64,000 nt of DNA from Vampirovibrionaceae bacterium NZW_1234 (GCA_041697335.1 JBGUGD010000023.1:118515-182514), one strand, 5' to 3'; positions 2,650 through 63,855 are shown, counted from the first letter of the stretch. Notes: generated from the letters alone by a model not told the origin. Translations and numbers: made by a program.

Positions 2650-3579
2650 TTAGTAAGCTCGCGGGGGAATGCCGTGGACCAGGAGATCGATGATGCGGTC
2701 GCTGATGGGGTAGCCGGAGAGCTGCTCATCCAGGATGAACACGGGTGTGGGGTTGCCTTCGAAGAAGACGTATTCGCCCTCCGGGGTGCGGCGCAGGTCG
2801 ATGCCGGTGAAGACCAGTTTAAGGACATCGGCCAGGCGTTTGCAGTCGGTCAGAACCTCGTCGGGGAGGGTGATGGGCACCCGCTTGGCTTCGTCGTCCT
2901 CTCGAAAGTCCAGGGTGGTGCTGTGGATCTCCATGGCAAACATCTCGTTGCCCACCAGGTAGGCTCGGATGTCCGTGCCGGGGATGAACTCCTGGAGCTT
3001 CACGGGTGAGTTGGCCAGGGTTTTGAGGCGCTCGGAGGTCAGGTCCTCGTCTTTTAAGAGGGTGGTGTGGGCCCAGCCTCGGACGGGTTTGAAGATGACC
3101 TGCTTGTTCAGGCGTTCGTAGAAGGCGATTAATTCGTCCGGGTCGTTGGTGATGAGGGTTTCGGGGACGCGGATGCCCGCCTGGTTGAGGAGTTGGAGCT
3201 GATAGCCCTTGTACTTGTGCATTTCCACCGACTCCCAGGGGTTGACCCAGGGGCAATCGAGGACCCGGCAGAAGCTGCCGATGGCCGATTCGATGTTCCA
3301 GTAGACGATTTCGTTGAGCATGGGGTCGTCTTCGTGGGGGGCGTTGACCCCTTTGGACCAGCGGCGGTAGACGCCCTGAATATCGGAGAAGGCCACCTTG
3401 GGTTCGGAGGGGGAGGCCTGGAAGAAGCCTTCGCATGGGCTTTCGGGTTTGTAGGATATCAAGGTCACCGTGGGATACTGGGTGGTATCGAACATGGTGG
3501 TCTTGAGCCCCCGTTGATGCATTTTGGATTGCATGTAGACGGAGGGGTAATCATCCGGGGTGCCGACAATGAGAATCAT
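2650..3579 (-). CDS. ATP-grasp ligase (RimK-like/graspetide synthetase family), paralog of 12092..13000
   Basis: WVNP, K.YQL, VPETLITND, IFKP, LQEFIPG.DIR, GIDLRRTPEGEYVFFEGNP motifs; colinear with the ligase beside the precursors. Confidence 0.9.
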   Translation of the reverse strand: MILIVGTPDDYPSVYMQSKMHQRGLKTTMFDTTQYPTVTLISYKPESPCEGFFQASPSEPKVAFSDIQGVYRRWSKGVNAPHEDDPMLNEIVYWNIESAIGSFCRVLDCPWVNPWESVEMHKYKGYQLQLLNQAGIRVPETLITNDPDELIAFYERLNKQVIFKPVRGWAHTTLLKDEDLTSERLKTLANSPVKLQEFIPGTDIRAYLVGNEMFAMEIHSTTLDFREDDEAKRVPITLPDEVLTDCKRLADVLKLVFTGIDLRRTPEGEYVFFEGNPTPVFILDEQLSGYPISDRIIDLLVHGIPPRAY

Positions 3580-3665: not shown

Positions 3666-4008
3666 TTTTTGCTCATTTTTGCTCAGGGTGACTTTGTTTT
3701 TGGTTTTTTGCCTCGTTTTTACTCAAAAATTACTCAGGGATTGAGTTGTTTTTTACCCAAAATTACTCAGGGCTTGAGTTATTTTTGTTGTTTTTTACTC
3801 AAAATTACTCAGGGCTTGAGGTATTTTTGTTGTTTTTTACTCAGAATTACTCAGGAATTGAGGTTTTTTGTTGTTTTTACTCGAAATTACTCAGGGAGGT
3901 GGGGTTTTTGGTTTGTTTTTTACTCAAATTGACTCAGGATGTTGATTTTTTTACTCAGTTTTACTCAGGTTGTTGTTTTGGTTCAGGGTTACTCACCGAT
4001 ACTCACCC
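3666..4008. repeat. Array of about 8-9 imperfect units T5-7ACTCA-N3-4-TTACTCAGG
   Basis: Units begin near 3666, 3716, 3750, 3791, 3833, 3874, 3916, 3946 and (degenerate) 3988; the central units are about 42 bp apart and nearly identical. Confidence 0.85.
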
Positions 4009-4372: not shown

Positions 4373-7240
4373 ATGACTGCAGAAATGTCTCTTGGGCCAA
4401 GCGGCGAGGAGGCCCAAAAATTTCAGAAAATGGCATTTTGGTTTGCCTGTGCCATCGGGGGCATTGGCCTATTGGCGCTAACAGGGTTTATTCTTGATAT
4501 TCATTTGCTGCGGTCGTTTCTGCCCCATTTCGCGCCGCTGATTTCCCTGCCATCTACGGTCAACATCCTTTGTGTCAGCATAGCAATGTTCCTGTATGCG
4601 TTATTTGACTCAAAACCATGGTCTCGCAGGGCGATCATCTGTCTTTTGCTGGTTCCCTTGTCCGTTGCCGGGTATTTCATTGTGCGTTCGTTATGGGCGG
4701 CACAGTTTGACGTGATTTCCTTGCTAATTCAGGATTATGGCATTGTCATGCCCTTCTTGTCTGCCATGAGTATGGGGCTTGGAGCATTGTCCTTCATGTC
4801 TTTTATTCTCTGGAAGGAGAATCGTTGGGGGACTTTGCTCTCCGGACTATTGGCCATGCTGATGGTTCAGATGAACCTGTATGCCTTGCTGGGGTATTTG
4901 CTGAAACTGCCGGTCCTTTACGATGATCGAATGTCGCTGCCGTCGTCCTTGTCTTATGTTCTGATTGGGACGGCGTTACTGATTATGACGACCCCCTTCG
5001 AGGGCTTTCTGGTACCGCTCTTTTCCAAAAACACCCGTGTTCGTCTTCTCACCATGTTCGCCCTCACCGTTGGCATTTTGATTTTGGTCGAGGGGATGAC
5101 GGACGTGTCGCGTTTTCATCATACGGTTGAACAGGGGATGATGGCGGATGTGCTTCGATTTAATTATTTCTATGTGATGACCTCGTTTTCCAACATCGGA
5201 TTATCTATTTTAATGCTGGTGGGGGCTTTGGAGGCGATTTACTATTTCGAGGCGTCCACGATCTATCAACGAGAAAAGCAGGTGGCCCAGCGCGAAACGC
5301 AACGGGCGGAGGAGGCTTTAGAAGCTTCATATCGGCAGTTGGAAGACTTTAAAAAGGCATTGGATGCATCCGATATTGTGGCCATTACGGATACGCACGG
5401 GGTGATTACCTATGTGAACGACGCTTTTTGTCGTATTTCAGGGTATACCCGTGACGAGCTGATCGGTCAAACCCACCGGCTGATCAATTCGGGCTATCAT
5501 CCCAAGTCGTTTTTTAAATCCATGTGGTCAGCCATTGGCCATGGCCATGTGTGGCATGCGGAAATAAAAAACAAGGCTAAGGATGGGAGCTATTACTGGG
5601 TTGATACGACGATTGTTCCGTTTTTGCGAGACGATGGCAGGCCGTACCAATACATTGCCGTCCGGCATGATATTACCGAGCGAAAACGTGTTGAAGAGCA
5701 ACTTCGGATGGCCTTTGACGACGTCAAGGAGAGTGAAGCCCGATTTCGGACCATTGCGGATGAGTCGCCCATGTTTATTGTCATGGTCGATCTGGCGATG
5801 CGCACCACGTTTCTCAATAAAACCTGGATTGACTTTACAGGGCAATCGTTCAGGGAGAGTCCTGTTCGTCCGTTTCTGGCCGAGGTGCTTCATCCGGATG
5901 ACGTGGACAGAACCGTTGACATGTATCAGCAGGCGGCACTATCGCCTCACACGTTTTCGCTGGAGAACCGACTGCGGTCCAGGGAGGGGGAGTATTTTTG
6001 GGTTCTATGGCATGGGACGCCGCGGTTTTTGCCCAACGGTGAATTTCTGGGCTTTATGAGCAGCGGGGTGGATATAACGGTTCGCAAACACATGGAGGAA
6101 GCCCTTCGAAACAGTGAATCCCAATGGCGAACGCTGGCCAACTCCATTCCGCAACTTGCATGGATGGCCGATCAGACCGGCTGGATCTTCTGGTATAACC
6201 AGCGCTGGTATGAGTACACGGGGCTCCCCATTGAATCTGTTGAAGGGTGGGGATGGCAGCAGGCGCATCATCCGGACCATGTGGATCGGGTGACCGAATC
6301 GATTCAATATGCCTTTATCCACGGAACCCCTTGGGAGGATACTTTTCCGCTCAGAAGCAAGGAGGGCCAATGGCGTTGGTTCTTGTCCCGTGCACTGCCG
6401 ATTCGAAACGATGCAGGCGAGGTGATTCGCTGGTTTGGATCCAATACCGATATTACCGATGAGCTGACAACGAAAGCGGCGCTGGAACAACTGACCCGGG
6501 AATTGGAACACCGGGTTGCCGAACGGACGGCAGCACTGGAGGAGAGCAATAAAGAATTGGAATCGTTTTCCTACTCCATTTCACATGATTTAAGGGCCCC
6601 GCTACGAAGTATTGATGGGTTTAGCCGACTGGTGTTAGCCGAACAGGCTGATAAGCTGGATGACGAAGGCCGACGTTACCTGCGGTTTATTCGGGAAAAT
6701 ACCCAGCGTATGGGAGAACTGATCGATGACTTGTTGCAGTTGTCCCGGGTGGGTCGGGCCGAGGTAAAACAGGAACCGGTGGATTTGAGTCAACTGGCAA
6801 CCCAGGTGCTGGAGGAATTGCAACTGCAAGAGCCGCATCGGCACCTGATGATTCATGTACAGGACGGCTGTCTGGCCACCGGGGATCGGATCCTGTTGAG
6901 AACGGTGTTGCAGAATTTATTGGCCAATGCCTGGAAATTTACATCGAAAACCGAGCAGGCCCGAATTGACTTTGGGTGTGATCAAGATGATACTGGAAAG
7001 CCGGTTTATTATGTGAAAGACAATGGCGCCGGATTTGATCCGGCCTATGCCGGAAAGTTGTTTGGTGCGTTTCAACGCCTGCATGATGCCCGTGATTTTC
7101 CGGGCACAGGCATCGGCCTTGCGACGGTGAAACGCATTATCAATCGTCATGGGGGAGAGATTTGGGCGGAAGGACAAACTAACCAGGGGGCTAACTTTTA
7201 TTTCACCCTGGGTTCTCGCAAAATAAAGCTGGGAACATAG
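4373..7240 (+). CDS. Membrane-bound multi-PAS sensor histidine kinase
   Basis: Multi-TM N-terminus, three PAS/PAC domains, H-box SYSISHDLRAPLR, N-box NLLANAWKF, G-boxes DNGAGF and GTGIGLA. Confidence 0.95.
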   Translation: MTAEMSLGPSGEEAQKFQKMAFWFACAIGGIGLLALTGFILDIHLLRSFLPHFAPLISLPSTVNILCVSIAMFLYALFDSKPWSRRAIICLLLVPLSVAGYFIVRSLWAAQFDVISLLIQDYGIVMPFLSAMSMGLGALSFMSFILWKENRWGTLLSGLLAMLMVQMNLYALLGYLLKLPVLYDDRMSLPSSLSYVLIGTALLIMTTPFEGFLVPLFSKNTRVRLLTMFALTVGILILVEGMTDVSRFHHTVEQGMMADVLRFNYFYVMTSFSNIGLSILMLVGALEAIYYFEASTIYQREKQVAQRETQRAEEALEASYRQLEDFKKALDASDIVAITDTHGVITYVNDAFCRISGYTRDELIGQTHRLINSGYHPKSFFKSMWSAIGHGHVWHAEIKNKAKDGSYYWVDTTIVPFLRDDGRPYQYIAVRHDITERKRVEEQLRMAFDDVKESEARFRTIADESPMFIVMVDLAMRTTFLNKTWIDFTGQSFRESPVRPFLAEVLHPDDVDRTVDMYQQAALSPHTFSLENRLRSREGEYFWVLWHGTPRFLPNGEFLGFMSSGVDITVRKHMEEALRNSESQWRTLANSIPQLAWMADQTGWIFWYNQRWYEYTGLPIESVEGWGWQQAHHPDHVDRVTESIQYAFIHGTPWEDTFPLRSKEGQWRWFLSRALPIRNDAGEVIRWFGSNTDITDELTTKAALEQLTRELEHRVAERTAALEESNKELESFSYSISHDLRAPLRSIDGFSRLVLAEQADKLDDEGRRYLRFIRENTQRMGELIDDLLQLSRVGRAEVKQEPVDLSQLATQVLEELQLQEPHRHLMIHVQDGCLATGDRILLRTVLQNLLANAWKFTSKTEQARIDFGCDQDDTGKPVYYVKDNGAGFDPAYAGKLFGAFQRLHDARDFPGTGIGLATVKRIINRHGGEIWAEGQTNQGANFYFTLGSRKIKLGT

Positions 7241-7262
7241 TGTCTTGTTACACTGAGGCGAT

Positions 7263-7703
7263 ATGAAAAATTGCGTTATCTTGTTGGTTGAAGACAACGA
7301 ATACGATCAGGAACTGACCATGAAAGCGCTTAAAATGGTGGGGCTTCAGGCAAAAATTGTGGTTGCCTGTGATGGGGTAGAGGCCTTGGATTATTTGATG
7401 GGGTCGTTAGAGACCGGTCAGTGCGATTTGAATGAGCACCCGCAGTTGGTTTTATTGGACTTGAAACTGCCGAAATTGGATGGGCACGAAGTCTTGAAAC
7501 AGATTCGCTCTAATGCCCGAACCCGGTTGCTTCCGGTGGTGGTTCTAACGTCGTCGCGTGAAGAAGAGGACGTGGTGAAGAGTTATGCCAACGGCGCGTA
7601 CAGCTATATTCGGAAACCTGTGGATTTTGACGACTTCCTGGATGTGGCTCAGAAAATCGGGGATTATTGGTTGAAAGTGAACGAAAATCCTCCGGTGGGT
7701 TAG
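7263..7703 (+). CDS. Single-domain response regulator (Rcp1-like)
   Basis: ILLVEDN, LVLLDLKLPKLDG, VLTSSREEED, YIRKPVDF. Confidence 0.93.
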   Translation: MKNCVILLVEDNEYDQELTMKALKMVGLQAKIVVACDGVEALDYLMGSLETGQCDLNEHPQLVLLDLKLPKLDGHEVLKQIRSNARTRLLPVVVLTSSREEEDVVKSYANGAYSYIRKPVDFDDFLDVAQKIGDYWLKVNENPPVG

Positions 7704-7707
7704 GAGG

Positions 7708-9258
7708 ATGGCCGTGAACTCGTCCAACTTGACGCCTATTCGGGTTCTTCTGGTTGAGGATTCTGAGTATGATGCTGAACTGATCATTAAAGAGCTGAAA
7801 GCCAGTTGGGATGTTTTTTATGAACGGGTATGCACCCCGGAAGAGATGACTCAAAAACTGTATGCGCATGACTGGGATATTATCCTGGCCGATTACCAGA
7901 TGCCCCGCTTTAGCGGCCCTGCGGCCCTGGAGTTGCTGAAGAAGACCGGCTTGGACATTCCCTTGATCATCGTGTCAGGGACAGTGGGGGAAGAAATTGC
8001 CGTGGATGCCCTTCGGGCCGGTGCCCAGGATTTTATTGTCAAAGGACACTTCATCCGGTTGATTCCGGCTGTCAAACGAGAACTCAGCGAGCGGGTGGCC
8101 CGTCAGGAGCTGCGTCAGGTCGAGCGTCAGTTTCGCCAGAGCGAAGAACGCTATCGGACCTTGATTGAAGGATTAACCCAATTTGCCATTCTGATCATTG
8201 ATGCGACGGGCTATATTCAGACTTGGAACGAAGGGGCGCAAAAAATATTGGGGTATCCCCCGGAAGAAGCCATCGGAATGCATTGTTCTTTCCTCTACTG
8301 CCCTGAAGACCGGGACCGTAGTATCCATGATCAAAGTTTGGCGATTGCCGTAAAGATGGGACAATATCATGAAGAAGGGTGGCGCTTAAAAAAGCATGGG
8401 GAACGCTTTTGGGCCGAAATTACCATTACGCCGATGTTTGATGACAAGGCGCAATTGATAGGTTATTCCAAGATTGCCATCGATCGTACCCAGGAAAGGG
8501 AAGCCCAAAAAGCGTTAGAAGAGTCGAAAGATCAGGCCGAACTTGCGAATCAGAAAAAAAGCCAGTTCCTGGCCAATATGTCCCACGAACTCAGAACACC
8601 ACTGAACTCCATTATCGGGTACTCGGAGATGATTCTGAACAATATGGTCAAATCTTCGGAAGATCTGGAACGCTACGCCAGGAATATTTCCGTTAGCGGG
8701 CGTCACCTGCTGGACATTGTGAACGATATGCTGGATGTGTCCAAAATTGAAGCCGGAAAGCTGGAGATTCATGCCCAGCCTGTTGATCTGCAGAAGTTGG
8801 TGCAGGAATTGCATGATGTGCTGGTGATGTTGGCCAATCAAAAAGAAATCAAGATTTTCTGGGATGTGGCTCCGGAGGTGAAGACCGTCGAAGCGGATCC
8901 CCAGCGGTTACGGCAGATTCTGTTTAACCTGATGAGTAATGCCATTAAATTCAACCGACCCGGGGGCAAGGTGATGCTGAACCTGTGCCGAAGCCAGGAT
9001 GAACGCTGGTTTCAAGGTGAAGTCACGGATACCGGCATTGGGATCCCGCGGGATAAGATTGATCAGCTGTTTTCCGATTTTTACCAGGTGGACAGTTCTT
9101 CGTCCAAGTCCTACGACGGGACGGGGTTGGGGCTGGCCCTGACCAAGCGCCTGCTGGCTGTGCAAGGCGGTGATATTTCCGTTGATAGCGAAGAAGGCAA
9201 AGGATCGACGTTTCTCTTCCGTCTGCCGATTCGACGGGCCAACCCGGAGTCGGCCTAA
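7708..9258 (+). CDS. Hybrid REC-PAS-HisKA-HATPase histidine kinase
   Basis: N-terminal receiver (LLVEDS, LADYQMP), PAS domain, [31 protein letters not shown]. Confidence 0.95.
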
Positions 9259-9301
9259 GGCCCCGGCATCATTGAGACCCAGGCGCATGATTGTTGCCTC
9301 A

Positions 9302-10369
9302 TTATTTTTGCATCATTCCCTGCAGATGGGCGATAAACTGGCTGATATTGCCATTGTCCAGGTGTTGGTACATGGTATTGGATTCCGAGTAGGTGTTCAG
9401 ATCGGTCCAATTCATCTGACCCGCATAACCGCCGGGATTATGGTTACTCATATAGGTCGGGGTGCCTCCCAAGGCAATCTGGACGGTATTGATTAGTTGG
9501 CCAAAGGGACCCACGGAATCGAGGACGGCGGGTTGTACAATTTCGTGACCAAAGTTGGCCAATCCGGGCAGGGTTCCTGCGGCTTGCTCTTGCCAGGTTT
9601 GATGTGGGCCTGCTAATGCTGGCGCCAGAATATGATAGAGGTTTCCATTGGGATGGTGCTGTCCATCTGCAAATTGTGCCAAAATGCCAATGTCGGCAGG
9701 GTCAAAGTGTTGCTGCATATGCCCGAACAAGATAGGGGCTGCAATGCCGGAAAACACCTGGCCATTGCCCGGGCCATCGGGAATGATATTGTGGAGTTCT
9801 TGCAGTACCATCAGAACATCCTGCCAGGTGTAGGGTCTGGGCTCATGACCCAGGACGTTGACGGCTAGAAACTGAAGCAGATAAGCCTGGATTTCCTGGG
9901 ATGTGGCTGTTGCCGGTGGTCTGCTTGGGGTGACGTCTGATACATCGGCTTCTGGGCCGTTTTCTCCCAGCATTTGAGGAATGTTTTGAGGCGGTGGCGG
10001 GGGCGCTGGCGGGGGTTGTAAAACCGGTATCTTGATGGGAATCCCCGTTTGCTGCGAAATCAGACCCAATGTTCCCATGTTACTTAAGCCGGGTGTGATT
10101 CCATACTGAGGCAGCGGGTTCATGACGGTGGTATTGTTCAGATAAACCAGGGAGGTGAGGACGTCACTGGCCGTGTTCTGGGCAAAGTTGGTGACCGATT
10201 CAAAGGTGTCGACAGCGGCATTGTATGCCCCTGAGCCCACCTGGTAGATGGTGTTGACCGTTCCCAGGACCGTGCCTGCCGCCTGCTGAATGTTATTGAG
10301 GGTGTTCACGGCAGAGTCGATTGGGTTGGGAAAGTTACTGGGAATGGAAAAGAAATTGCCGAGTTCCAT
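9302..10369 (-). CDS. Hypothetical N/Q/P/G-rich protein
   Basis: 355-aa ORF with GGAG before ATG; Cys-free, poly-Pro stretch; no recognised domain. Confidence 0.65.
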   Translation of the reverse strand: MELGNFFSIPSNFPNPIDSAVNTLNNIQQAAGTVLGTVNTIYQVGSGAYNAAVDTFESVTNFAQNTASDVLTSLVYLNNTTVMNPLPQYGITPGLSNMGTLGLISQQTGIPIKIPVLQPPPAPPPPPQNIPQMLGENGPEADVSDVTPSRPPATATSQEIQAYLLQFLAVNVLGHEPRPYTWQDVLMVLQELHNIIPDGPGNGQVFSGIAAPILFGHMQQHFDPADIGILAQFADGQHHPNGNLYHILAPALAGPHQTWQEQAAGTLPGLANFGHEIVQPAVLDSVGPFGQLINTVQIALGGTPTYMSNHNPGGYAGQMNWTDLNTYSESNTMYQHLDNGNISQFIAHLQGMMQK

Positions 10370-10681: not shown

Positions 10682-11116
10682 TTAGGAAAAGGTTCTGTTG
10701 CCCTTGAGCAGGTTGAGCAGGACTTGAAGGCGTTGGAGTATCTGGGTGATGTCCATATTGCCTCCGGGCGGGCGGAAGCCGCCTTCCTGATCGCTGGGGA
10801 ATTTTTCGGTCCCAACACCGCAGAACATGGGCGGACGTGTGCCGCCTTCCTGGTCGCTGGGGAACTTGAGCGTTTGGATGTCGCCACCGATGGGGGGACG
10901 CGTGCCGCCTTCCTGATCGCTGGGGAATTTTAAGGTTTGAATGTCGCCACCGATGGGAGGACGTGTGCCGCCTTCCTGATCGCTGGGGAATTTGCGGGTT
11001 TGAACATCGCCACCGATGGGGGGACGCGTGCCGCCTTCCTGATCACTGGGGAATTTCATCGTGGTCGCAATGTTGCGACTTCCGAGGCTTGCATAATCTA
11101 AAAAATATCCCGACAT
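10682..11116 (-). CDS. Multicore graspetide (microviridin/marinostatin-type) precursor A, 5 cores TxKFPSDQE
   Basis: AGGA before ATG 11116; five cores at exact 21-aa spacing matching the TxKxPSD motif; synonymous codon differences between repeats; downstream of an ATP-grasp ligase. Confidence 0.9.
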   Translation of the reverse strand: MSGYFLDYASLGSRNIATTMKFPSDQEGGTRPPIGGDVQTRKFPSDQEGGTRPPIGGDIQTLKFPSDQEGGTRPPIGGDIQTLKFPSDQEGGTRPPMFCGVGTEKFPSDQEGGFRPPGGNMDITQILQRLQVLLNLLKGNRTFS

Positions 11117-11358
11117 GAAAACCGTCCTATCTGAACACCACAAAAATATCTATATATATATAAACAATTTATTTCAGGATTAATTGCCACGAAACGCCCA
11201 AAGGTAACGTTTTGTAACACCATTAGGCATCATGGTCAGTCCTCACGATTCGGTGTGTTCACCTTGGGGTATCTCCATCTGAGGGTGTGATCGCCGGTGT
11301 CTGGCAAGCTCTGGACGCGGTTAGCCAGAATACATACTGAGTGTGACCCGTAACAAGC

Positions 11359-11892
11359 TTACGAATTGGCTCTGAAATTCTGCAAAAGCAGCATCAGAAC
11401 AAGAATTCGCTGGAAGGATAGGCCCGAGGAATTGTTGTTTCCCGGTGGGCGTATGCCGCTTTCATCGTCACTGGGAGCTTTCATGGTGAGGCTTATCTTG
11501 TCGATGGGTGGGTGCATCCCTCCTGGCGGACGGATGCCGCTTTCATCATCGCTGGGAGCCTTCATGGTGAAGCTAATCTTGTCGATGGGTGGGTGCATCC
11601 CTCCTGGCGGGCGATAGCCGCTTTCATCATCGCTGGGGGCCTTCATGGTGAGATTGATATAGTCAAAGGGAGGGCGATAGCCGCTTTCATCATCACTGGG
11701 GGCTTTCATGGTGTATGCCAAAGCATCGTTAGGAGGACGATAGCCACTTTCATCATCACTGGGGGCTTTCATGGTATAGGCCAAAGCATCGTTGGGGGGA
11801 CGATAGCCGCTTTCATCATCGCTGGGGGCTTTCATGGTGTACCCGATATTTCGGGGAGCCGACTGGGCATAGTCAAAGAAATATTGAGACAC
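11359..11892 (-). CDS. Multicore graspetide precursor B, 6 cores TMKAPSDDE
   Basis: AGGAG before GTG 11892; six cores at 21/21/21/27/27-aa spacing; leader homologous to precursor A. Confidence 0.9.
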   Translation of the reverse strand: MSQYFFDYAQSAPRNIGYTMKAPSDDESGYRPPNDALAYTMKAPSDDESGYRPPNDALAYTMKAPSDDESGYRPPFDYINLTMKAPSDDESGYRPPGGMHPPIDKISFTMKAPSDDESGIRPPGGMHPPIDKISLTMKAPSDDESGIRPPGNNNSSGLSFQRILVLMLLLQNFRANS

Positions 11893-12091
11893 TAACTCTC
11901 TCCTAACATGGATGTGGTTATTTAATCATATTTATATAAAAAAATAATATTTCTACCAATTGCCTGAAGTCGTCCTCATGTAAACTTTTGTGTAAAAGAG
12001 CGCAGTGCCTGAGAAACCTGGAGCTGCTGTGCTTTATGCCCAGGAAATCGGTGAGATTATTTAAGCTCTGAAGCCTGCAGAGACAAAGGGT

Positions 12092-13000
12092 CTATGAACC
12101 GCCTCTGACCAAGGTGTCCGCCAGGCAATCGCTGATTTTAAGGCCGCTGCGGTCTTCGTAGATCATGAACAAGGGGCTGGGGTTGGCCTCGAAGAAAACG
12201 TACTCGTCGTCCGGGGTACGACGCAGGTCGATTCCGGTGAGCCTGAGACCCAGGGTCCTGGCCAGGCGGCGGCACTGGTCTTCTACGGAAGCGGGAAGGG
12301 CTGCCGGAAGAATCCGCATGGCTTGATCGGTTTTGTAATGCTCGGTGTCCGTATGGACTTCCGTGATGAACAACTCGTCCTCGATAACATGGACCCGGAT
12401 ATCCACGCCGGGAATAAATTCCTGGCACTGGACCGGCAAGGCGGAGAGTCGACTGAGGGCGTCGGGGGCCATATCCTGGTCCGTAAGCTTATGGGCAATG
12501 GCACTCCCGGCCAGGGGTTTGACGATGGCATGTCGTTGGTGGGCTTCGTAAAAGGCAACCAGCTTTTCCGGATCGTTGGTGATCAGGGTCTCAGGGACGC
12601 GAAAACCAGCAGACTTCAGTATCGAGAGCTGATGTGGCTTGAACCGGTGCAGTTCGATGGCGGTGGCGGGGTTGACCCAGTAGGTGTCCAGATTGCGCCA
12701 CAGGCTGCCGAGGGCGGCTTCCAGCTCCTGCTGAACAAAGAATCGATAAGCGACATCCTGGTGAGAGGGGAGAGACAGCCCTTCATAGCAATACCAATAC
12801 ACGGCGTCGATATCTGAAAAGGGGATGCGGTTGGGCAATTCTGGTGTTTGAATCCATCCCTCCCCGGCTTCGGTAAAGCTGATTCGGGTCTGGGTCGGGA
12901 ACGTGCGGGTATCGAAGCAGACAACCTGCTTCCCTCGGGCTTCGATTTTCTGTCGAACCCGATCGGAATGAATATCTGAGGAGCCAAGAATGAGTATCAC
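12092..13000 (-). CDS. ATP-grasp ligase, probable graspetide macrocyclase
   Basis: WVNP, KPHQL, VPETLITND, IVKP, QEFIPGVDIR, GIDLRRTPDDEYVFFEANP; co-oriented directly upstream of two TxKxPSD precursors. Confidence 0.92.
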   Translation of the reverse strand: MILILGSSDIHSDRVRQKIEARGKQVVCFDTRTFPTQTRISFTEAGEGWIQTPELPNRIPFSDIDAVYWYCYEGLSLPSHQDVAYRFFVQQELEAALGSLWRNLDTYWVNPATAIELHRFKPHQLSILKSAGFRVPETLITNDPEKLVAFYEAHQRHAIVKPLAGSAIAHKLTDQDMAPDALSRLSALPVQCQEFIPGVDIRVHVIEDELFITEVHTDTEHYKTDQAMRILPAALPASVEDQCRRLARTLGLRLTGIDLRRTPDDEYVFFEANPSPLFMIYEDRSGLKISDCLADTLVRGGS

Positions 13001-13727: not shown

Positions 13728-15812
13728 TCAGGCCGGTTTTTGTGTGTCCGCTTTTCTGCTGGCCAGCGTCTTTTCCCACAGGGCACGCCAGTCGGCGACG
13801 CCTGAGGTTTGGAACATCTCCCGAATGGCCACGGGATCGTTCATGGTTTCTTCCTGTTCGATACGGGCGATGATTTTTTCCCGGGCTTCGGGGGGAATGG
13901 CCTTGATGAAGGCCACAGTGGTTTCATACAGTTGGCTTAACAGGTCGTTGCGGACGGACTCGCCTTTTTCCTTCAATGCCGGAGAGACATCGCTGTGGGC
14001 AAAAGGATTGTCCGAGGGAGGGATGATGACCTGGCCGAAGCGCTCCGGGTAGAGGGCCGAGGTTTCGATAGCCTCTTTCATCAACTGGTTCACCTTGGCC
14101 CAGTCGTTGGAGGCCCCGGAGGAGACGTTGTCCTTACCATAGAGGGCTTCTTCGGCGGCGCGGCCTCCCATGATCATGCAGGCCATCTTCTCCACAAACT
14201 GACGGGTCTGGTGGTACTTGGGCATGCCTTCGGGATCGGTGCCCATAATGCCCAGGGCCGTGCCACCACCTTCCATGTTTCGGGGGACTACGGTCAGGAA
14301 CTGGACGGGTAAGCCCAGGGCCCACGCCACGGCCGCATGGCCCAGGGTTTCATGGACCGCGACCCGGCGTTTGTCCTCCGGGGTAAAGGCTACGTCCTTT
14401 TTGGGCAGGCCCAGGTAGATTCGCTCGATAGCATCCAGAAAATCCTGGCGCTCGATAGCGGTCTTGTCCCGGCGCCGTGCCAGGAGAGCGGCCTCGTTGG
14501 CGATTTTTTCGATTTCGGCCCCGCTGGTTCCCGGCCACATGCGTCGGGCAATGAAAAGGGAATCCACATCGTCGGCGACTTTCTTGTTGCGCAAGTGGAC
14601 GTTGAGAATATCCCGGCGTCCTTCCGGGGTCATCGGCGGTGTGACGGTGTATTTCTTATCGAAGCGCCCGGGACGGACCAGGGCCTTGTCCAGGGTCTCG
14701 GCCCGGTTGGTGGCGGCGATGACCAGGACGTCATCGGTGGCGTTAAAGCCGTCCATCTCCGAGAGGATGGCGTTGAGGGTCTGCTCGCGCTCGTCGTGTC
14801 CGCCCACGCCGGGACCGGCACCGCCGCGCTTTTTCCCAATGGCGTCGATTTCGTCGATAAAGATGACCGAGGGGGCATGTTTTCGGGCCGTGGCAAACAG
14901 ATCCCGGACACGGCGAGCGCCCATCCCGACGAAGAGTTCCACGAAGTCGGATCCGCTAAGGCTAAAGAAGGGTCGATTTAACTCACCGGCGATGGCCTTT
15001 GCCAACAGGGTCTTACCGGTTCCGGGCGGGCCTTCCAAGAGGATGCCACTGGGTAAGCGCTCTCCAACTCGGCTTTCGCGATCGTTAAAGAGATTGAGGA
15101 TGTCGGCCCGGATTTCATGCACGACTTCAGGGATGCCTGCGACATGATCCAGGGTGACCTTGGGGGCGTTGGCGTTGGTAGTATGGCTTTGGAGGGCGCT
15201 AAAGCCACCCCGGCCAGCCATGCCGCTCATCATGCGATAGGCCAGGTACCCGATCAGGGCCAGCGGGAGAAGTTGTATGGCCAGCATCAGGAAAATCGCA
15301 CCCACCTGGCTTTCGTCTTTAACCTGCGGGTGAAGTCCTTTTTCCCGCATGGATTGAACCAGTTCGGTATAGCCGGGTTGTTGTGGGTTGGGCACAAAAT
15401 GCTGGACGTTCTTGTTGTCGAGAATTACCCGCCATTCGATGGCGGTTTTACCGGCCTGGATTTCGATGGCCTTCACCCGCCCGGCCTGGATCTGCTGCAT
15501 GAGCTCCTGGGGTGTGGCGATGAGGAGGCCGTTCGCATCGGGGATGGTTTCGCCGGGTTGGACCGGGGCGGTTAGCTGCGGGTTTGGCTTTTGAGGGGCC
15601 AGGGCGGAATAGCCCATGTATGCGGCAAGGCCCAGGGTGAGATACAGGAGCAGTTTGTTTCGTCGGGGGGGCTGTTTCTGCGGGGATGCGGTTCCGAAAC
15701 GAAGCAAATCGTCAGTCCGATGATGGTGTGCGTTGGCCAACGGTCGCTCGGGAACGTGTCCGATAGACAGCGCCGTCCGATGGGCAGGCACCCCCAGAAG
15801 TGGTGTCACCAT
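13728..15812 (-). CDS. ftsH: FtsH-family AAA+ metalloprotease (atypical HETLGH zinc motif)
   Basis: Two TM segments, Walker A GPPGTGKT, pore FVG, Walker B IFIDEID, SRH ALVRPGRFD, M41 motifs GGRAAEE and GASND. Confidence 0.9.
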   Translation of the reverse strand: MVTPLLGVPAHRTALSIGHVPERPLANAHHHRTDDLLRFGTASPQKQPPRRNKLLLYLTLGLAAYMGYSALAPQKPNPQLTAPVQPGETIPDANGLLIATPQELMQQIQAGRVKAIEIQAGKTAIEWRVILDNKNVQHFVPNPQQPGYTELVQSMREKGLHPQVKDESQVGAIFLMLAIQLLPLALIGYLAYRMMSGMAGRGGFSALQSHTTNANAPKVTLDHVAGIPEVVHEIRADILNLFNDRESRVGERLPSGILLEGPPGTGKTLLAKAIAGELNRPFFSLSGSDFVELFVGMGARRVRDLFATARKHAPSVIFIDEIDAIGKKRGGAGPGVGGHDEREQTLNAILSEMDGFNATDDVLVIAATNRAETLDKALVRPGRFDKKYTVTPPMTPEGRRDILNVHLRNKKVADDVDSLFIARRMWPGTSGAEIEKIANEAALLARRRDKTAIERQDFLDAIERIYLGLPKKDVAFTPEDKRRVAVHETLGHAAVAWALGLPVQFLTVVPRNMEGGGTALGIMGTDPEGMPKYHQTRQFVEKMACMIMGGRAAEEALYGKDNVSSGASNDWAKVNQLMKEAIETSALYPERFGQVIIPPSDNPFAHSDVSPALKEKGESVRNDLLSQLYETTVAFIKAIPPEAREKIIARIEQEETMNDPVAIREMFQTSGVADWRALWEKTLASRKADTQKPA

Positions 15813-17262: not shown

Positions 17263-17510
17263 TTGAATTTTCCTCCCTCAGATGAGACCTTGCCGCACAT
17301 CCTAGCATAAAAAAGTTTGTTTTATTCAATTTCGATGCCGTTTTTCTCACCGACAAGAGAATCTAAATTGTTCCTTAAATCCGCTGCAAATTTGTCACAA
17401 GAGATTCAAGAGTTGTTTTTATATCTTTAAGAAATGGGCTTAGGCAATGTTCTCAGTAAAGACGATTGTCTTCGTTTTCGGGCTTGGGTAATGAAGGAGT
17501 TTGTAGCGGT

Positions 17511-17939
17511 ATGACATATGCGGTTCAACCTCGGGGTAGCGTTCTCTGTGGTGCTTACACGGCTTCGAATCTGGCAAAGGAACTGGGCAAGAATATTTCG
17601 CCCGAGCAGGCACGAATGTCAGGCTTTGAACCGGATCGGCCTGCCGGTATTGGTCCGAATGCGGTTGAACCTGGATTGGAACGCATGGGGCTGGATGCTG
17701 AACGCCAGCCTTCGGCACAAAGTTCGTATAACAATCTGAAAAACGGGGGCAAGGAATTCTTCGCCGTCATGCAACGGGATCCGCAAACGGGGCAGGTCTT
17801 TGGCCATGCGGTTGCCGGGAAAGGTGTCGACAGCCAAGGAAATGTCGTCTACGTGGATCCGATCGACGGGCAAGAACATCGGGAACGTCCTGAAGAATTT
17901 TATGGCCGGACGATGGGCGCTTGGAGCGTCACGGCATAA
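17511..17939 (+). CDS. Stand-alone papain-fold cysteine peptidase, C39-like
   Basis: AAGGAG at 17494-17499; Q...CG (VQPRGSVLCG), GHAV and YVDP give a Gln/Cys/His/Asp order as in C39 peptidases. Confidence 0.65.
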   Translation: MTYAVQPRGSVLCGAYTASNLAKELGKNISPEQARMSGFEPDRPAGIGPNAVEPGLERMGLDAERQPSAQSSYNNLKNGGKEFFAVMQRDPQTGQVFGHAVAGKGVDSQGNVVYVDPIDGQEHRERPEEFYGRTMGAWSVTA

Positions 17940-19058: not shown

Positions 19059-20648
19059 TTAAATTGGCTCTGCCGACAAGGAAGGTCCCGCTTCAGGCGC
19101 CGGGGAGAGCGTACTGGAGAGGACGTGATAATACTGTTCAACTTCAGCCCGATCGTCAAAGGCGATGGTTCTGTCGGCCAGAATCTGATATGTTTCGTGG
19201 CCTTTTCCGGCAATCAGGACCAGGTCATCCGGATGAGCCAGGTTCAGGGCGTGATGAATCGCCTGTCGGCGATCGGGTTCAACGATCATCCGTTCCGGGC
19301 GAAACCGCTCGATGCCGGTGAGAATGTCGGTGATGATTTGCTGCGGATCTTCCGAGCGGGGGTTATCCGAGGTAATGACCAGAATATCGGCGTCTTTTTC
19401 TGCAATCATCCCCATCTGGTGCCGTTTGGCAATGTCTCGTTCGCCGCCGCAGCCAAACACGAGAATCAGGCGACCCGTCGGGGTAAGTAGGTTACGAGCC
19501 GCACACAGAACGTTTTCCAGACCGGAAGGTGTGTGTGCATAATCCACAATGACGGTTGGACGTTGGTGGACACGTTCAAAACGGCCTCGAATTTCCGTAA
19601 TTTCAGACAAGGCCTCTTGAATGACCGGAATCGGGACCTTCAACGCCAGAGCGGCAGAAATGGCTGCCAGAGCGTTATAAATGCCAAACTGGCCAATAAG
19701 ATTGAGTTTTACTGGAAAGGCTTCCGCAGGCAAGACACACGTAAACGTGGTGTGCTGCAATTCGTTACGAATGTCTGTCGCAACGACATCGGCTTTGGGC
19801 TTGGGATTATTGGCCGACGCCACGGCATAGTAAACCCGGCGAACATGGGGGGGGCAATGCGACTCGAAGTGAGACACATAGGGATCATCCGCATTCAGCA
19901 CCGCGATTTTAGTCTTGTTTTCTTCGGGTTCAAGGGATTGGAATAGCAGTGTTTTTGCTTGGACATAGCGTGTTGTTGATTTATGAAAATCCAAGTGCTC
20001 AGGCCAAATGTTGGTCAATACGGCCATATCGAAATGGCACCCTGCAACTCGGCCTTGTGCCAGGGCATGGGAGCTGACTTCCATGACCACGGTATCGATC
20101 TCAGATTGGGCCAGTTTGGCCAATAAGGCTTGCAACTCATCGGCTTTGGGTGTTGAGGGTTTTGCCTGAATGGGATCACATAAGCGCTCGGATTCCAATC
20201 CCAGCGTGCCAATGACTGTGGTGTTGCGATGATGTTTTTTCAGAATGTGATCCAGAATATGTGCGACCGTGGTTTTTCCATTGGTTCCGGTAATTCCGAT
20301 CATGGTGAACGTTCGGCTGGGATCCTGAAAAAAACGGCTGGCTAAGGTGCCCAGAATTTGATGGGTACTGTGGACCGAAAGAATGGCACACTGATTTAAA
20401 ATTGCGGGCGGGATGCTTTTCGGATTTTCAACGATCAGCGCAATCGCACCCTGGACAACGGCATGTTCTGCAAACTCGTGCCCATCAGTAATATGGCCCG
20501 GCATGCAAACAAATACGGCATCGGGTTTGACTTGGCGAGAATCCGAGAACACGCCTGAAATTTCCCGGTGTCTCACTTGGTCATAGAACTCGGGATTGAT
20601 AAGGGTGACCTGATCCCCAAAGTCGGAAAATAACGCTTGCAATTGCAT
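19059..20648 (-). CDS. murE: UDP-MurNAc-Ala-Glu:meso-DAP ligase
   Basis: DSRQV, GITGTNGKTT, MEVSSH, HLDFH, DYAHTP, GCGGERD, DNPR (DAP-type), GKGHE. Confidence 0.96.
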   Translation of the reverse strand: MQLQALFSDFGDQVTLINPEFYDQVRHREISGVFSDSRQVKPDAVFVCMPGHITDGHEFAEHAVVQGAIALIVENPKSIPPAILNQCAILSVHSTHQILGTLASRFFQDPSRTFTMIGITGTNGKTTVAHILDHILKKHHRNTTVIGTLGLESERLCDPIQAKPSTPKADELQALLAKLAQSEIDTVVMEVSSHALAQGRVAGCHFDMAVLTNIWPEHLDFHKSTTRYVQAKTLLFQSLEPEENKTKIAVLNADDPYVSHFESHCPPHVRRVYYAVASANNPKPKADVVATDIRNELQHTTFTCVLPAEAFPVKLNLIGQFGIYNALAAISAALALKVPIPVIQEALSEITEIRGRFERVHQRPTVIVDYAHTPSGLENVLCAARNLLTPTGRLILVFGCGGERDIAKRHQMGMIAEKDADILVITSDNPRSEDPQQIITDILTGIERFRPERMIVEPDRRQAIHHALNLAHPDDLVLIAGKGHETYQILADRTIAFDDRAEVEQYYHVLSSTLSPAPEAGPSLSAEPI

Positions 20649-62824: not shown

Positions 62825-63091
62825 ATGAAACGACGGAGCTGGACATCCCAGCAAAAAGCAGCCATCGTCCTGGAAGGACTTCAGGGCAAGTCTGTGGCAG
62901 ACATTTGCCTGGAATACCAGATTACACAGAGCCAGTATTACCAGTGGCGAGACCAGGTGCTGAGCAATCTTCCTCGCCTGTTTGAGCTAAATCAGACCGG
63001 TAAAGTCGAAGAGCGTCTCAAGCGAGAGAATGCCAGGCTCAAGACCTGTGTTGCCGAGTTGACCCTGGAGGTAAAAAAAAGCGAATGGTAA
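62825..63091 (+). CDS. IS3-family transposase OrfA (HTH)
   Basis: RRSWTSQQKAAIVLE...YYQWR, C-terminal LKRENARLK zipper; AAGGAG SD. Confidence 0.9.
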   Translation: MKRRSWTSQQKAAIVLEGLQGKSVADICLEYQITQSQYYQWRDQVLSNLPRLFELNQTGKVEERLKRENARLKTCVAELTLEVKKSEW

Positions 63092-63855
63092 GCCCAAGAA
63101 ACCCCTCTTTGAAAATTGTCCAGCGCAATCAGGAGCTGGTAGAACGAATCAGACACCTCAAGGCGGAACACCCCTTCTGGGGATACCGGCGTATCTGGGC
63201 GTACTTGTATTACGCTGAGCATCGTCTGGTCAACAAAAAGCGGGTCTATCGCCTGATGAAGGAGCACGGGTTGCTGGTGAACAAAAACACCCGCCTGAGA
63301 GCAGGTCGTACGAATCACAAGCCCAAGCCTCGACCCAATCAACCGAATCAATGGTGGGGTATTGATATGACCAAAGTACTGACCCAGACGGGATGGGTGT
63401 ACATCACGATTGTGCTGGACTGGTTTACCAAGAAGGTCGTTGGTCACCATGTGGGCTCACAAAGCAAGGCCTGTCACTGGTTGGAAGCCTTGGAGCAAGG
63501 TGTTCAGTGTCAATTCCCTAAGGGTGTGCAAGGGCAAGGGCTCAAGTTGATGTCAGACAACGGGTGTCAGCCAACGTCCGGGCTGTTTATCAAAACCTGC
63601 GCTACGCTGGGTATTGAACAGGCTTTTACGGCCTACAACAACCCCAAAGGGAATGCCGATACCGAAAGATTCATGCGGACGATGAAGGAAGAATCCCTGT
63701 GGCTACAAGAATGGCGTGGTCTGGAACATGTGAAAACGGAGGTGACAAAGTGGATTAACGTCTACAATACCCAATATTTACACTCATCACTGGGCTACAA
63801 GACCCCAGCCCATTTTGAACAAATCCATCAAGACACTCTCTTATTTTGCGCTTGA
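63085..63855 (+). CDS. IS3-family transposase OrfB (DDE integrase core)
   Basis: WGYRRI, KRVYRLM, WGIDMT, SDNG, DTERF, HSSLGYKTP. Confidence 0.93.
   Translation: MVSPRNPSLKIVQRNQELVERIRHLKAEHPFWGYRRIWAYLYYAEHRLVNKKRVYRLMKEHGLLVNKNTRLRAGRTNHKPKPRPNQPNQWWGIDMTKVLTQTGWVYITIVLDWFTKKVVGHHVGSQSKACHWLEALEQGVQCQFPKGVQGQGLKLMSDNGCQPTSGLFIKTCATLGIEQAFTAYNNPKGNADTERFMRTMKEESLWLQEWRGLEHVKTEVTKWINVYNTQYLHSSLGYKTPAHFEQIHQDTLLFCA

Follow-up and report, generated by a model that had tools for sequence, protein, structure and literature searches.

A probable two-ligase graspetide pathway pairing microviridin-like cores with plesiocin-clade ATP-grasp ligases in Vampirovibrionia

The 64,000-nt stretch of DNA analyzed here, hereafter called the window, probably encodes a two-ligase graspetide pathway of Vampirovibrionia that would yield arrays of bicyclic protease inhibitors. 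An ATP-grasp ligase of the MvdC/MvdD/PsnB kind lies beside precursors with donor and acceptor residues, as expected of a graspetide locus. By sequence, both ligases, named here beta and gamma, belong to the plesiocin (group 2) clade and are not microviridin ligases. Also, ligase number tracks the ring-forming residues read from the cores in 12 genomes of this lineage.

Organization of the Locus

The gamma ligase, a divergent ATP-grasp enzyme of the plesiocin clade (302 aa; 12092-13000, minus strand), was recognized by its ORF, profile and predicted fold. Precursor B (177 aa, six cores, leader YFFDYA; 11359-11892) and precursor A (144 aa from its ATG, five cores, leader YFLDYA; 10682-11116) were recognized as ORFs with core repeats and lie on the same minus strand, in agreement with a sequence-only reading of this DNA that had described an ATP-grasp gene and two small co-oriented ORFs. 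For precursor A, the ORF finder gave an alternative TTG start at 11143, which adds 9 residues. The same reading had described one ligase, and on this point it has to be corrected: there are two such ligases in the genome, and the window contains both. The second, beta (309 aa; 2650-3579, minus strand), was detected by profile search about 7 kb downstream of the gamma/precursor locus, and profile search of the genome found no third ligase of this kind.

Between precursor A and beta lies a block (4373-10369) made of three two-component genes on the plus strand and a 355-aa orphan on the minus strand (9302-10369), directly downstream of precursor A, which had no match to any family, in the Atlas or in the fetched loci. 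This block is probably an insertion. No orthologous neighbor of it was found in the fetched loci, and in loci L004 and L005 only some 55 bp separate the end of the precursor from beta. The neighbor genes of the window likewise gave no orthologous match in the fetched loci, and none was counted as part of the pathway. As the sequence-only reading had remarked, neither a GNAT acetyltransferase nor an ABC transporter was present among the neighboring ORFs scanned (sets of 12, 10, and 32 proteins, limited beyond position 20000 to ORFs of at least 180 aa). A 157-aa orphan ORF at 17466-17939 showed weak similarity to Peptidase_C39_2 (E 0.002) and had no homologue in the genome or in the fetched loci; seven C39-domain genes are located on other contigs of the genome, and a Walker A motif is present in none of them (frame checked).

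Upstream of beta, the window contains non-coding direct repeats of 31-42 bp (3716-3979). The 42-bp repeats were considered as a candidate precursor and rejected, as stops occur in all three minus frames; they are possibly binding sites of a regulator. Scans for promoters and terminators gave no site resembling a sigma-70 promoter, and the single terminator-like site was at chance level. Elsewhere in the window, an FtsH-like gene (13728-15812) scores below its family cut-off and reads HETLGH, one residue longer than usual, where the zinc-binding motif is expected, and an insertion-sequence integrase (63085-63855) lies at the end of the window. The host does group with Vampirovibrionales and gave no reaction-centre match (genome 94.75% complete), so that its description as a non-photosynthetic relative of cyanobacteria holds.

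Precursors and Cores

The repeats noted by the sequence-only reading, six TMKAPSDDESG in precursor B and five TxKFPSDQEGG in precursor A, are all present, and start at 11838, 11775, 11712, 11649, 11568, and 11487 in precursor B and at 11062, 10999, 10936, 10873, and 10810 in precursor A. The cores of precursor A read T[MRLLE]KFPSDQEGG, position 5 being M, R, L, L, and E in order; GG follows each core and also stands three residues before Thr4 in cores 2-4. Synonymous differences among the copies, which had also been pointed out, were found at AGC/AGT, GAT/GAC, AAA/AAG, and GCC/GCT. The pattern T.K.PSD occurs 11 times in the region and 11 times in the whole window, against 0 in 300 base shuffles of the region. 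The precursors score 50.9 and 70.9 bits with the NCBIfam microviridin-precursor model NF033738, for a cut-off of 26, these scores being sums over the repeats. The cores, this model and the ligase fold thus bear out the description of a multicore graspetide locus with microviridin-like cores. In microviridin numbering, an acid at position 13 occurs in 0 of the 11 window cores.

The leader was rightly called non-canonical, as it reads YFLDYA or YFFDYA and not PFFARFL. The motif Y[FM][LFI][DNQ][YF]A stands at the start of exactly three ORFs of the genome, all of them precursors of this type. The third (L001:7077-8372, contig C28 of the source genome G000) has about 431 aa, 12 PSD cores and the same leader, with no ligase on contig C28; its first two cores lack Lys6, as do beta-only cores (see below). 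Downstream of it, at about 1.3 kb and on the same strand, there is a radical SAM gene. A search for a TTxxxxEE array in the genome gave only 2 isolated, chance-like matches.

Precursor B ends in a hydrophobic tail and precursor A in an amphipathic Q/L tail. Order-wide, precursors of the PSD and TTxxxxEE types end in, or contain, a Gln/Leu/Met-rich helix, seen at 10682-10760 and 11359-11430 and in L004, L010, L017, L163, L169, L261, and L262. This helix could be a lineage-specific follower or a secretion signal, and it may resemble harpin helices.

Three features that had been thought unusual turned out to be common. Ala at core position 7 is one of them, as KAPSD occurs at least 134 times in a published graspetide table (Carter 2026, PMC13097080); long multicore group 1 precursors appear in the same table (PMC13097080), and tandem precursor duplication, seen here as two paralogous precursors, is called frequent in the literature consulted.

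Phylogeny of the Ligases

In a careful tree of 36 rows, both window ligases fell in a clade (100/99) with TTxxxxEE-associated ligases, and MvdC/MvdD formed a separate one (100/99). Quick trees of 125 and 61 rows agreed with this placement, with rows subsampled so that the largest tree held 22 non-melainabacterial TTxxxxEE rows. The phylogeny proposed as a check by the sequence-only reading thus came out in part: the ligases are placed in the plesiocin-type clade, apart from MvdC/MvdD, but PsnB itself is no row of the tree, and its clade was identified through TTxxxxEE neighbors and the published branch label. Related ligases of Singulisphaera and of Fischerella PCC 7521 and PCC 7702 are labelled Branch_Plesiocin, group 2, in the supplements searched (Makarova 2022, PMC8939145). 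AU tests rejected the groupings gamma+beta+Mvd (p 1.7e-5), gamma+Mvd (p 2.8e-7), and beta+Mvd (p 5.9e-42), and did not reject gamma+beta as a single clade (p 0.21). The gamma clade (98/94) branches outside alpha+beta (95/95). The beta clade (100/100), internally a polytomy, contains ligases that adjoin PSD or PENGG cores.

Other comparisons point the same way. The best solved-structure sequence match of gamma is PsnB (E 1.8e-37; MdnC, 4.6e-23), and PsnB is also the best such match for the profiles of both subtypes. The MvdC/MvdD-type ligase models gave 115 and 112 bits for cut-offs of 475 and 425. Loci for these comparisons were gathered by ligase profile search, a single-protein search of genome contigs having given none. 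Among 144 distinct ligases from two locus scans, 97 lie by TTxxxxEE cores, 12 by PSD cores and 1 by PENGG cores, with none detected for 34.

Beta is 43% identical to gamma and keeps all standard motifs, including the equivalent of Arg72 and DFR of PsnB, with Trp where PsnB has Arg101. In the window it has no adjoining precursor, and it is the orthologue of the ligase found beside PSD-type precursors in relatives. A subclade inside the beta ligases, delta (L069, L188-L190, L280, L326), lies beside long TTxA(F/I)PENGG arrays with a KPWLN leader. These arrays are possibly another undescribed core type; PENGGG has 0 occurrences among the rows listed in the table of Carter 2026. In locus L256 (G152:C8), a beta-type ligase is split over two frames, and 12 kb of sequence gave no precursor; this locus is likely decayed.

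Ligase Number and Core Residues

The 12 Vampirovibrionia genomes of the core comparison were read in microviridin numbering. With beta only (G029, G122, L011, L013, L015; 24 cores), Lys6 is present in 0 cores, an acid at position 11 in 24, and an acid at position 12 or 13 in 0. With beta and gamma (G182, G185, G191, and the source genome; 38 cores), Lys6 is found in 36, acid 12 in 37, and acid 13 in 0. With beta and two gammas (G149, G078, G164; 37 cores), the counts are 33 for Lys6, 35 for acid 12, and 33 for acid 13, and the two gammas of these loci are sisters (99/94). For G182, G185, G191, and G164, the link between ligase and precursor was drawn from ORFs cut at contig ends, with exact contig-end overlap in 0 of 4; G149, G078, and the window locus are contiguous. 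Locus L084, cut by its contig, was kept apart from this comparison, and its two cores read TMRYPSDD beside beta. Since the genomes are kin, the covariation amounts to two or three events: all three-ligase loci belong to a single clade, and two of the Gastranaerophilales rows hardly differ.

A search for gamma in the five beta-only genomes found none. Gamma is present in 7 of the 49 genomes of the order, five of which had contributed to its search profile, and all 7 have beta and Lys6/Glu12 cores. Between beta and gamma of G182 lies an ORF with long AGN/AGT tripeptide repeats (L248 / L006:3423-4196).

Divergence of the Gamma Ligase

The predicted fold of gamma is that of an ATP-grasp macrocyclase (pLDDT 96), with a TM-score of about 0.85 to MdnC and to PsnB alike, and the graspetide pre-ATP-grasp domain is present. 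With PsnB residue numbering transferred through sequence alignment, gamma has Tyr70 at the position of PsnB Arg72 and HYK (221-223) in place of DFR. By alignment, the Arg72 equivalent is present in 0 of 13 gammas against 229 of 229 other graspetide ligases, and the Asp and Arg of DFR in 1 of 13 gammas each, again against 229 of 229. By contrast, the ATP/Mg residues K121, K161, Q193, D258, E271, and N273, as well as the acceptor-binding R202 (PsnB Arg213), are kept and invariant in 13 of 13 gammas, and His204 is both gamma-specific and invariant. According to the preprint on PsnB (bioRxiv 10.1101/2021.03.09.434688), Ala mutants of DFR are inactive, tight binding of the core depends on Arg72, and the carboxylate that forms the ring is held by Arg213. 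As loss of DFR abolishes PsnB activity, gamma may be non-catalytic. It is not simply decaying, since a dN/dS of 0.17 (0.09 for beta), from one genome pair, indicates purifying selection.

These data also bear on the view that the ligase adjacent to the precursors serves them alone. Gamma lacks two motifs that are invariant among the other aligned ligases, and a second ligase type is present in each of the 7 genomes, out of 49 of the order, in which gamma was detected, so that this one-ligase view is probably wrong.

Proposed Pathway and Alternatives

We propose that the YF(L/F)DYA leader would recruit the plesiocin-clade ATP-grasp enzymes, and that beta would close a Thr4-Asp10 ester in each core, as inferred from microviridin chemistry. 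Closure of a second ring, onto Glu12, would require gamma, which might act within a beta-gamma heterodimer. Precursor A has only Asp10 and Glu12 as acceptors, and hence at most two rings can form per core. For the second ring, we lean to a Lys6-Glu12 lactam, tentatively, because Lys6 comes and goes with gamma and because the locus L236, which is without an amide ligase, has lost Lys6. A Ser9-Glu12 ester is the next candidate, with a probability hardly lower, and any other linkage seems unlikely. The loss of Lys6 in L236, a canonical single-MvdD locus, fits the idea that Lys6 is kept only where it is used. Retention of Lys6 here also speaks mildly, as a sequence trait, against two esters of the marinostatin type with no amide. 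Alternatively, protease binding could account for the retention of Lys6 as a basic residue. The gamma profile is slightly closer to amide-forming MvdC (124.0 bits) than to MvdD (120.1), and the beta profile gives 105.3 bits for MvdC and 129.9 for MvdD; the lack of a preference for ester-forming MvdD, unlike in alpha and beta, is a weak hint toward the amide.

A model of the beta-gamma complex had a score of 0.89, and none of the three controls exceeded 0.00, the mark for this score being reached by 116 of 157 solved and by 2 of 215 mismatched pairs. Contacts agreed at 97% or more between runs, with a partner pLDDT of at least 88. The interface is symmetric, like that of solved ligase homodimers, so the model speaks for the feasibility of a heterodimer, by likeness, and not for its formation.

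A different division of labor, in which catalysis falls to beta and gamma, either inactive or active only under some conditions, is a partner subunit that remodels the specificity of beta, appears rather unlikely, though several points are in its favor. The missing Arg72 equivalent and DFR speak for it, and the heterodimer model passes, through its likeness to solved homodimers. Dependence and binding between two ligases are reported for MyxD1/MyxD2 (PMC12848669), as is dependence on a partner protein for rosaritide (PMC13097080). Yet six ATP/catalytic residues are invariant in all 13 gammas, together with the gamma-specific His204, and the three-ligase loci keep two distinct gammas along with a third acceptor. 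It is improbable that the adjacent gamma makes two esters per core on its own, in a marinostatin-like manner, with beta serving something else. This reading takes its strength from the position of gamma, co-oriented and directly upstream of both precursors with beta 7 kb away, and from the existence of single-ligase bicyclic loci of the marinostatin type (L236; PMC7823629). But gamma was detected only in genomes that have beta and Lys6/Glu12 cores (7 of 49), beta has no other candidate substrate in a genome that yielded no TTxxxxEE array, and beta-only PSD loci exist when no gamma-only locus was seen. Finally, the Pro/Gly-rich spacers and long tails could suggest that the repeat ORFs are unmodified low-complexity proteins, unrelated to the ligases. 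We regard this as very improbable, in view of precursor scores above the curated cut-off, B cores that vary only synonymously, adjacency in many genomes and a core type that covaries with ligase type.

Under the two-ligase pathway that we prefer, the two window precursors would give arrays with 11 bicyclic cores in all, and the C28 precursor, modified in trans, would add 12. By analogy, the products are most likely inhibitors of serine proteases, and the residue at position 5 (M, L, R, K, E, Q, D) would change the target, as this position is described to set protease specificity in microviridins (PMC7823629). There are weak grounds to suppose that the cores are released at GG by an unlinked protease.

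Comparison with Known Graspetides

On its sequence features, the system does not belong to group 1, from which its leader, its position 13 and its ligase clade set it apart, nor to group 2, from which it differs in the core. With plesiocin (group 2; PsnA2, PsnB) it shares the ligase clade, a ligase size of about 300 aa, multicore precursors, a short Phe-centred leader and GG after the cores. It differs by a TxKxPSDxE core instead of TTxxxxEE, by two or three ligases (relatives included) instead of one, and, relative to PsnB, by the Trp of beta at the Arg101 position and by the absence of the Arg72 equivalent and of DFR from gamma. With class II multicore microviridins (AMdnA/AMdnB/AMdnC) it shares the T4, K6, P8, S9, D10, E12 register, tandem cores, a variable position 5, two ligases and a pass with NF033738. 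However, microviridins (group 1) have a PFFARFL leader and ligases of the MvdC/MvdD clade, to which the window ligases, far under the cut-offs and rejected by the AU test, do not belong; the microviridin core TxKxPSDx(D/E)(D/E) is not found, with acid 13 in 0 of the 23 cores of the genome, and the linked C39-ABC transporter and HlyD of class II microviridins are both missing from this locus. By analogy, it is nonetheless fairly probable that the pathway works like the microviridin pathway.

Marinostatin also has a PSD core and, like the predicted products, is bicyclic with no lactam at position 13, but it combines a PFFARFL leader with an MvdD-type ligase and has Arg at position 6; the window has neither this leader nor such a ligase, its enzymes are of group 2, and Lys6 is kept. 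Marinostatin, with its PFFARFL leader retained, is considered a derivative of microviridins through loss of MdnB (PMC7823629). In myxomiditide biosynthesis, several ATP-grasp ligases share ring formation, one depending on the others (PMC12848669); the myx ligases belong inside or close to the MvdC/MvdD branches, and their cluster has a PFFxRFx leader and additional KxxE rings, unlike the window locus. The closest entry in the part of the Carter 2026 table consulted is MBM3271360.1 (Ca. Tanganyikabacteria, ungrouped), which by its table row has TLRYPSDDA repeats and one listed ligase, like beta-only loci, and lacks the Lys6/Glu12 of the window cores.

Origin of the Core

Two histories compete closely, as published group 1 precursors carry units near-identical to those of the three-ligase loci, which makes capture followed by loss a close rival to stepwise evolution. 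In the former, a multicore array taken from a canonical group 1 precursor was joined to a leader of group 2; the number of ligases then rose to three, and loci with two ligases or one derive from this state by reduction. We hold this to be a real possibility that falls short of probable. It would explain why group 1 multicore precursors in the published table nearly match the three-ligase units (MEW6280085.1 compared with L010), and it accords with the polytomy of the beta clade and the position of gamma outside alpha+beta. Against it stand cores that grade into each other beside sister ligases (TTQAFPENGG and TMRYPENGG, with the delta clade inside beta; TTLAYPSDD), a single precursor, L286, that holds both PSD and GEEGG cores, and the AU test, in which a gamma+beta clade is not rejected, so that gamma may have arisen as a copy of beta and evolved quickly.

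The graded series, which includes TTLALGEEGG, fits stepwise evolution from the plesiocin core TTxxxxEE. It is conceivable, though doubtful, that the microviridin cage arose twice, the second time in this non-photosynthetic sister group of cyanobacteria, through duplication of plesiocin-type enzymes, one enzyme per ring, with living one-, two-, and three-ring stages. The locus described here would then be the two-ring stage, with an undescribed combination of Thr4-Asp10 ester and Lys6-Glu12 lactam, closed by a ligase active in the absence of the otherwise universal Arg and DFR.

Novelty and Distribution

The suggestion of an undescribed graspetide subfamily is apparently correct, as our search of papers and tables met with no description of it. 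Our literature search found no paper on graspetides in this lineage. The supplements of Makarova 2022 that were searched (PMC8939145) gave no Melainabacteria, Vampirovibrio, or Gastranaerophilales entry, and among the matches listed from Carter 2026 (PMC13097080), Vampirovibrio and Gastranaerophilales appear only in group 2 or ungrouped, with none of these cores or leaders. Graspetide grouping has a core motif pair with a ligase clade, and here cores like those of group 1 occur together with ligases of group 2. Loci with one, two, and three ligases and matching acceptors offer a set for studying the evolution of ring topology and of the choice between ester and amide, and gamma allows one to ask if the Arg72 and DFR motifs are truly indispensable or if a partner subunit can provide them. 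Macrocyclases specific for single rings, and a new scaffold for bicyclic protease inhibitors, may result. These loci also draw attention to the peptide chemistry of a lineage of which few members are cultured and which includes an algal predator (L004).

As for distribution, the genome search with NF033738 was insensitive (3 of 401 genomes), and a tandem DNA pattern search matched 10 of 401, including two single matches in family f5. In the gut-type family f7, TTxxxxEE arrays are embedded in proteins of 250-560 aa. Ligase matches are common in the order, with 33 of the 44 genomes of families f2 and f3.
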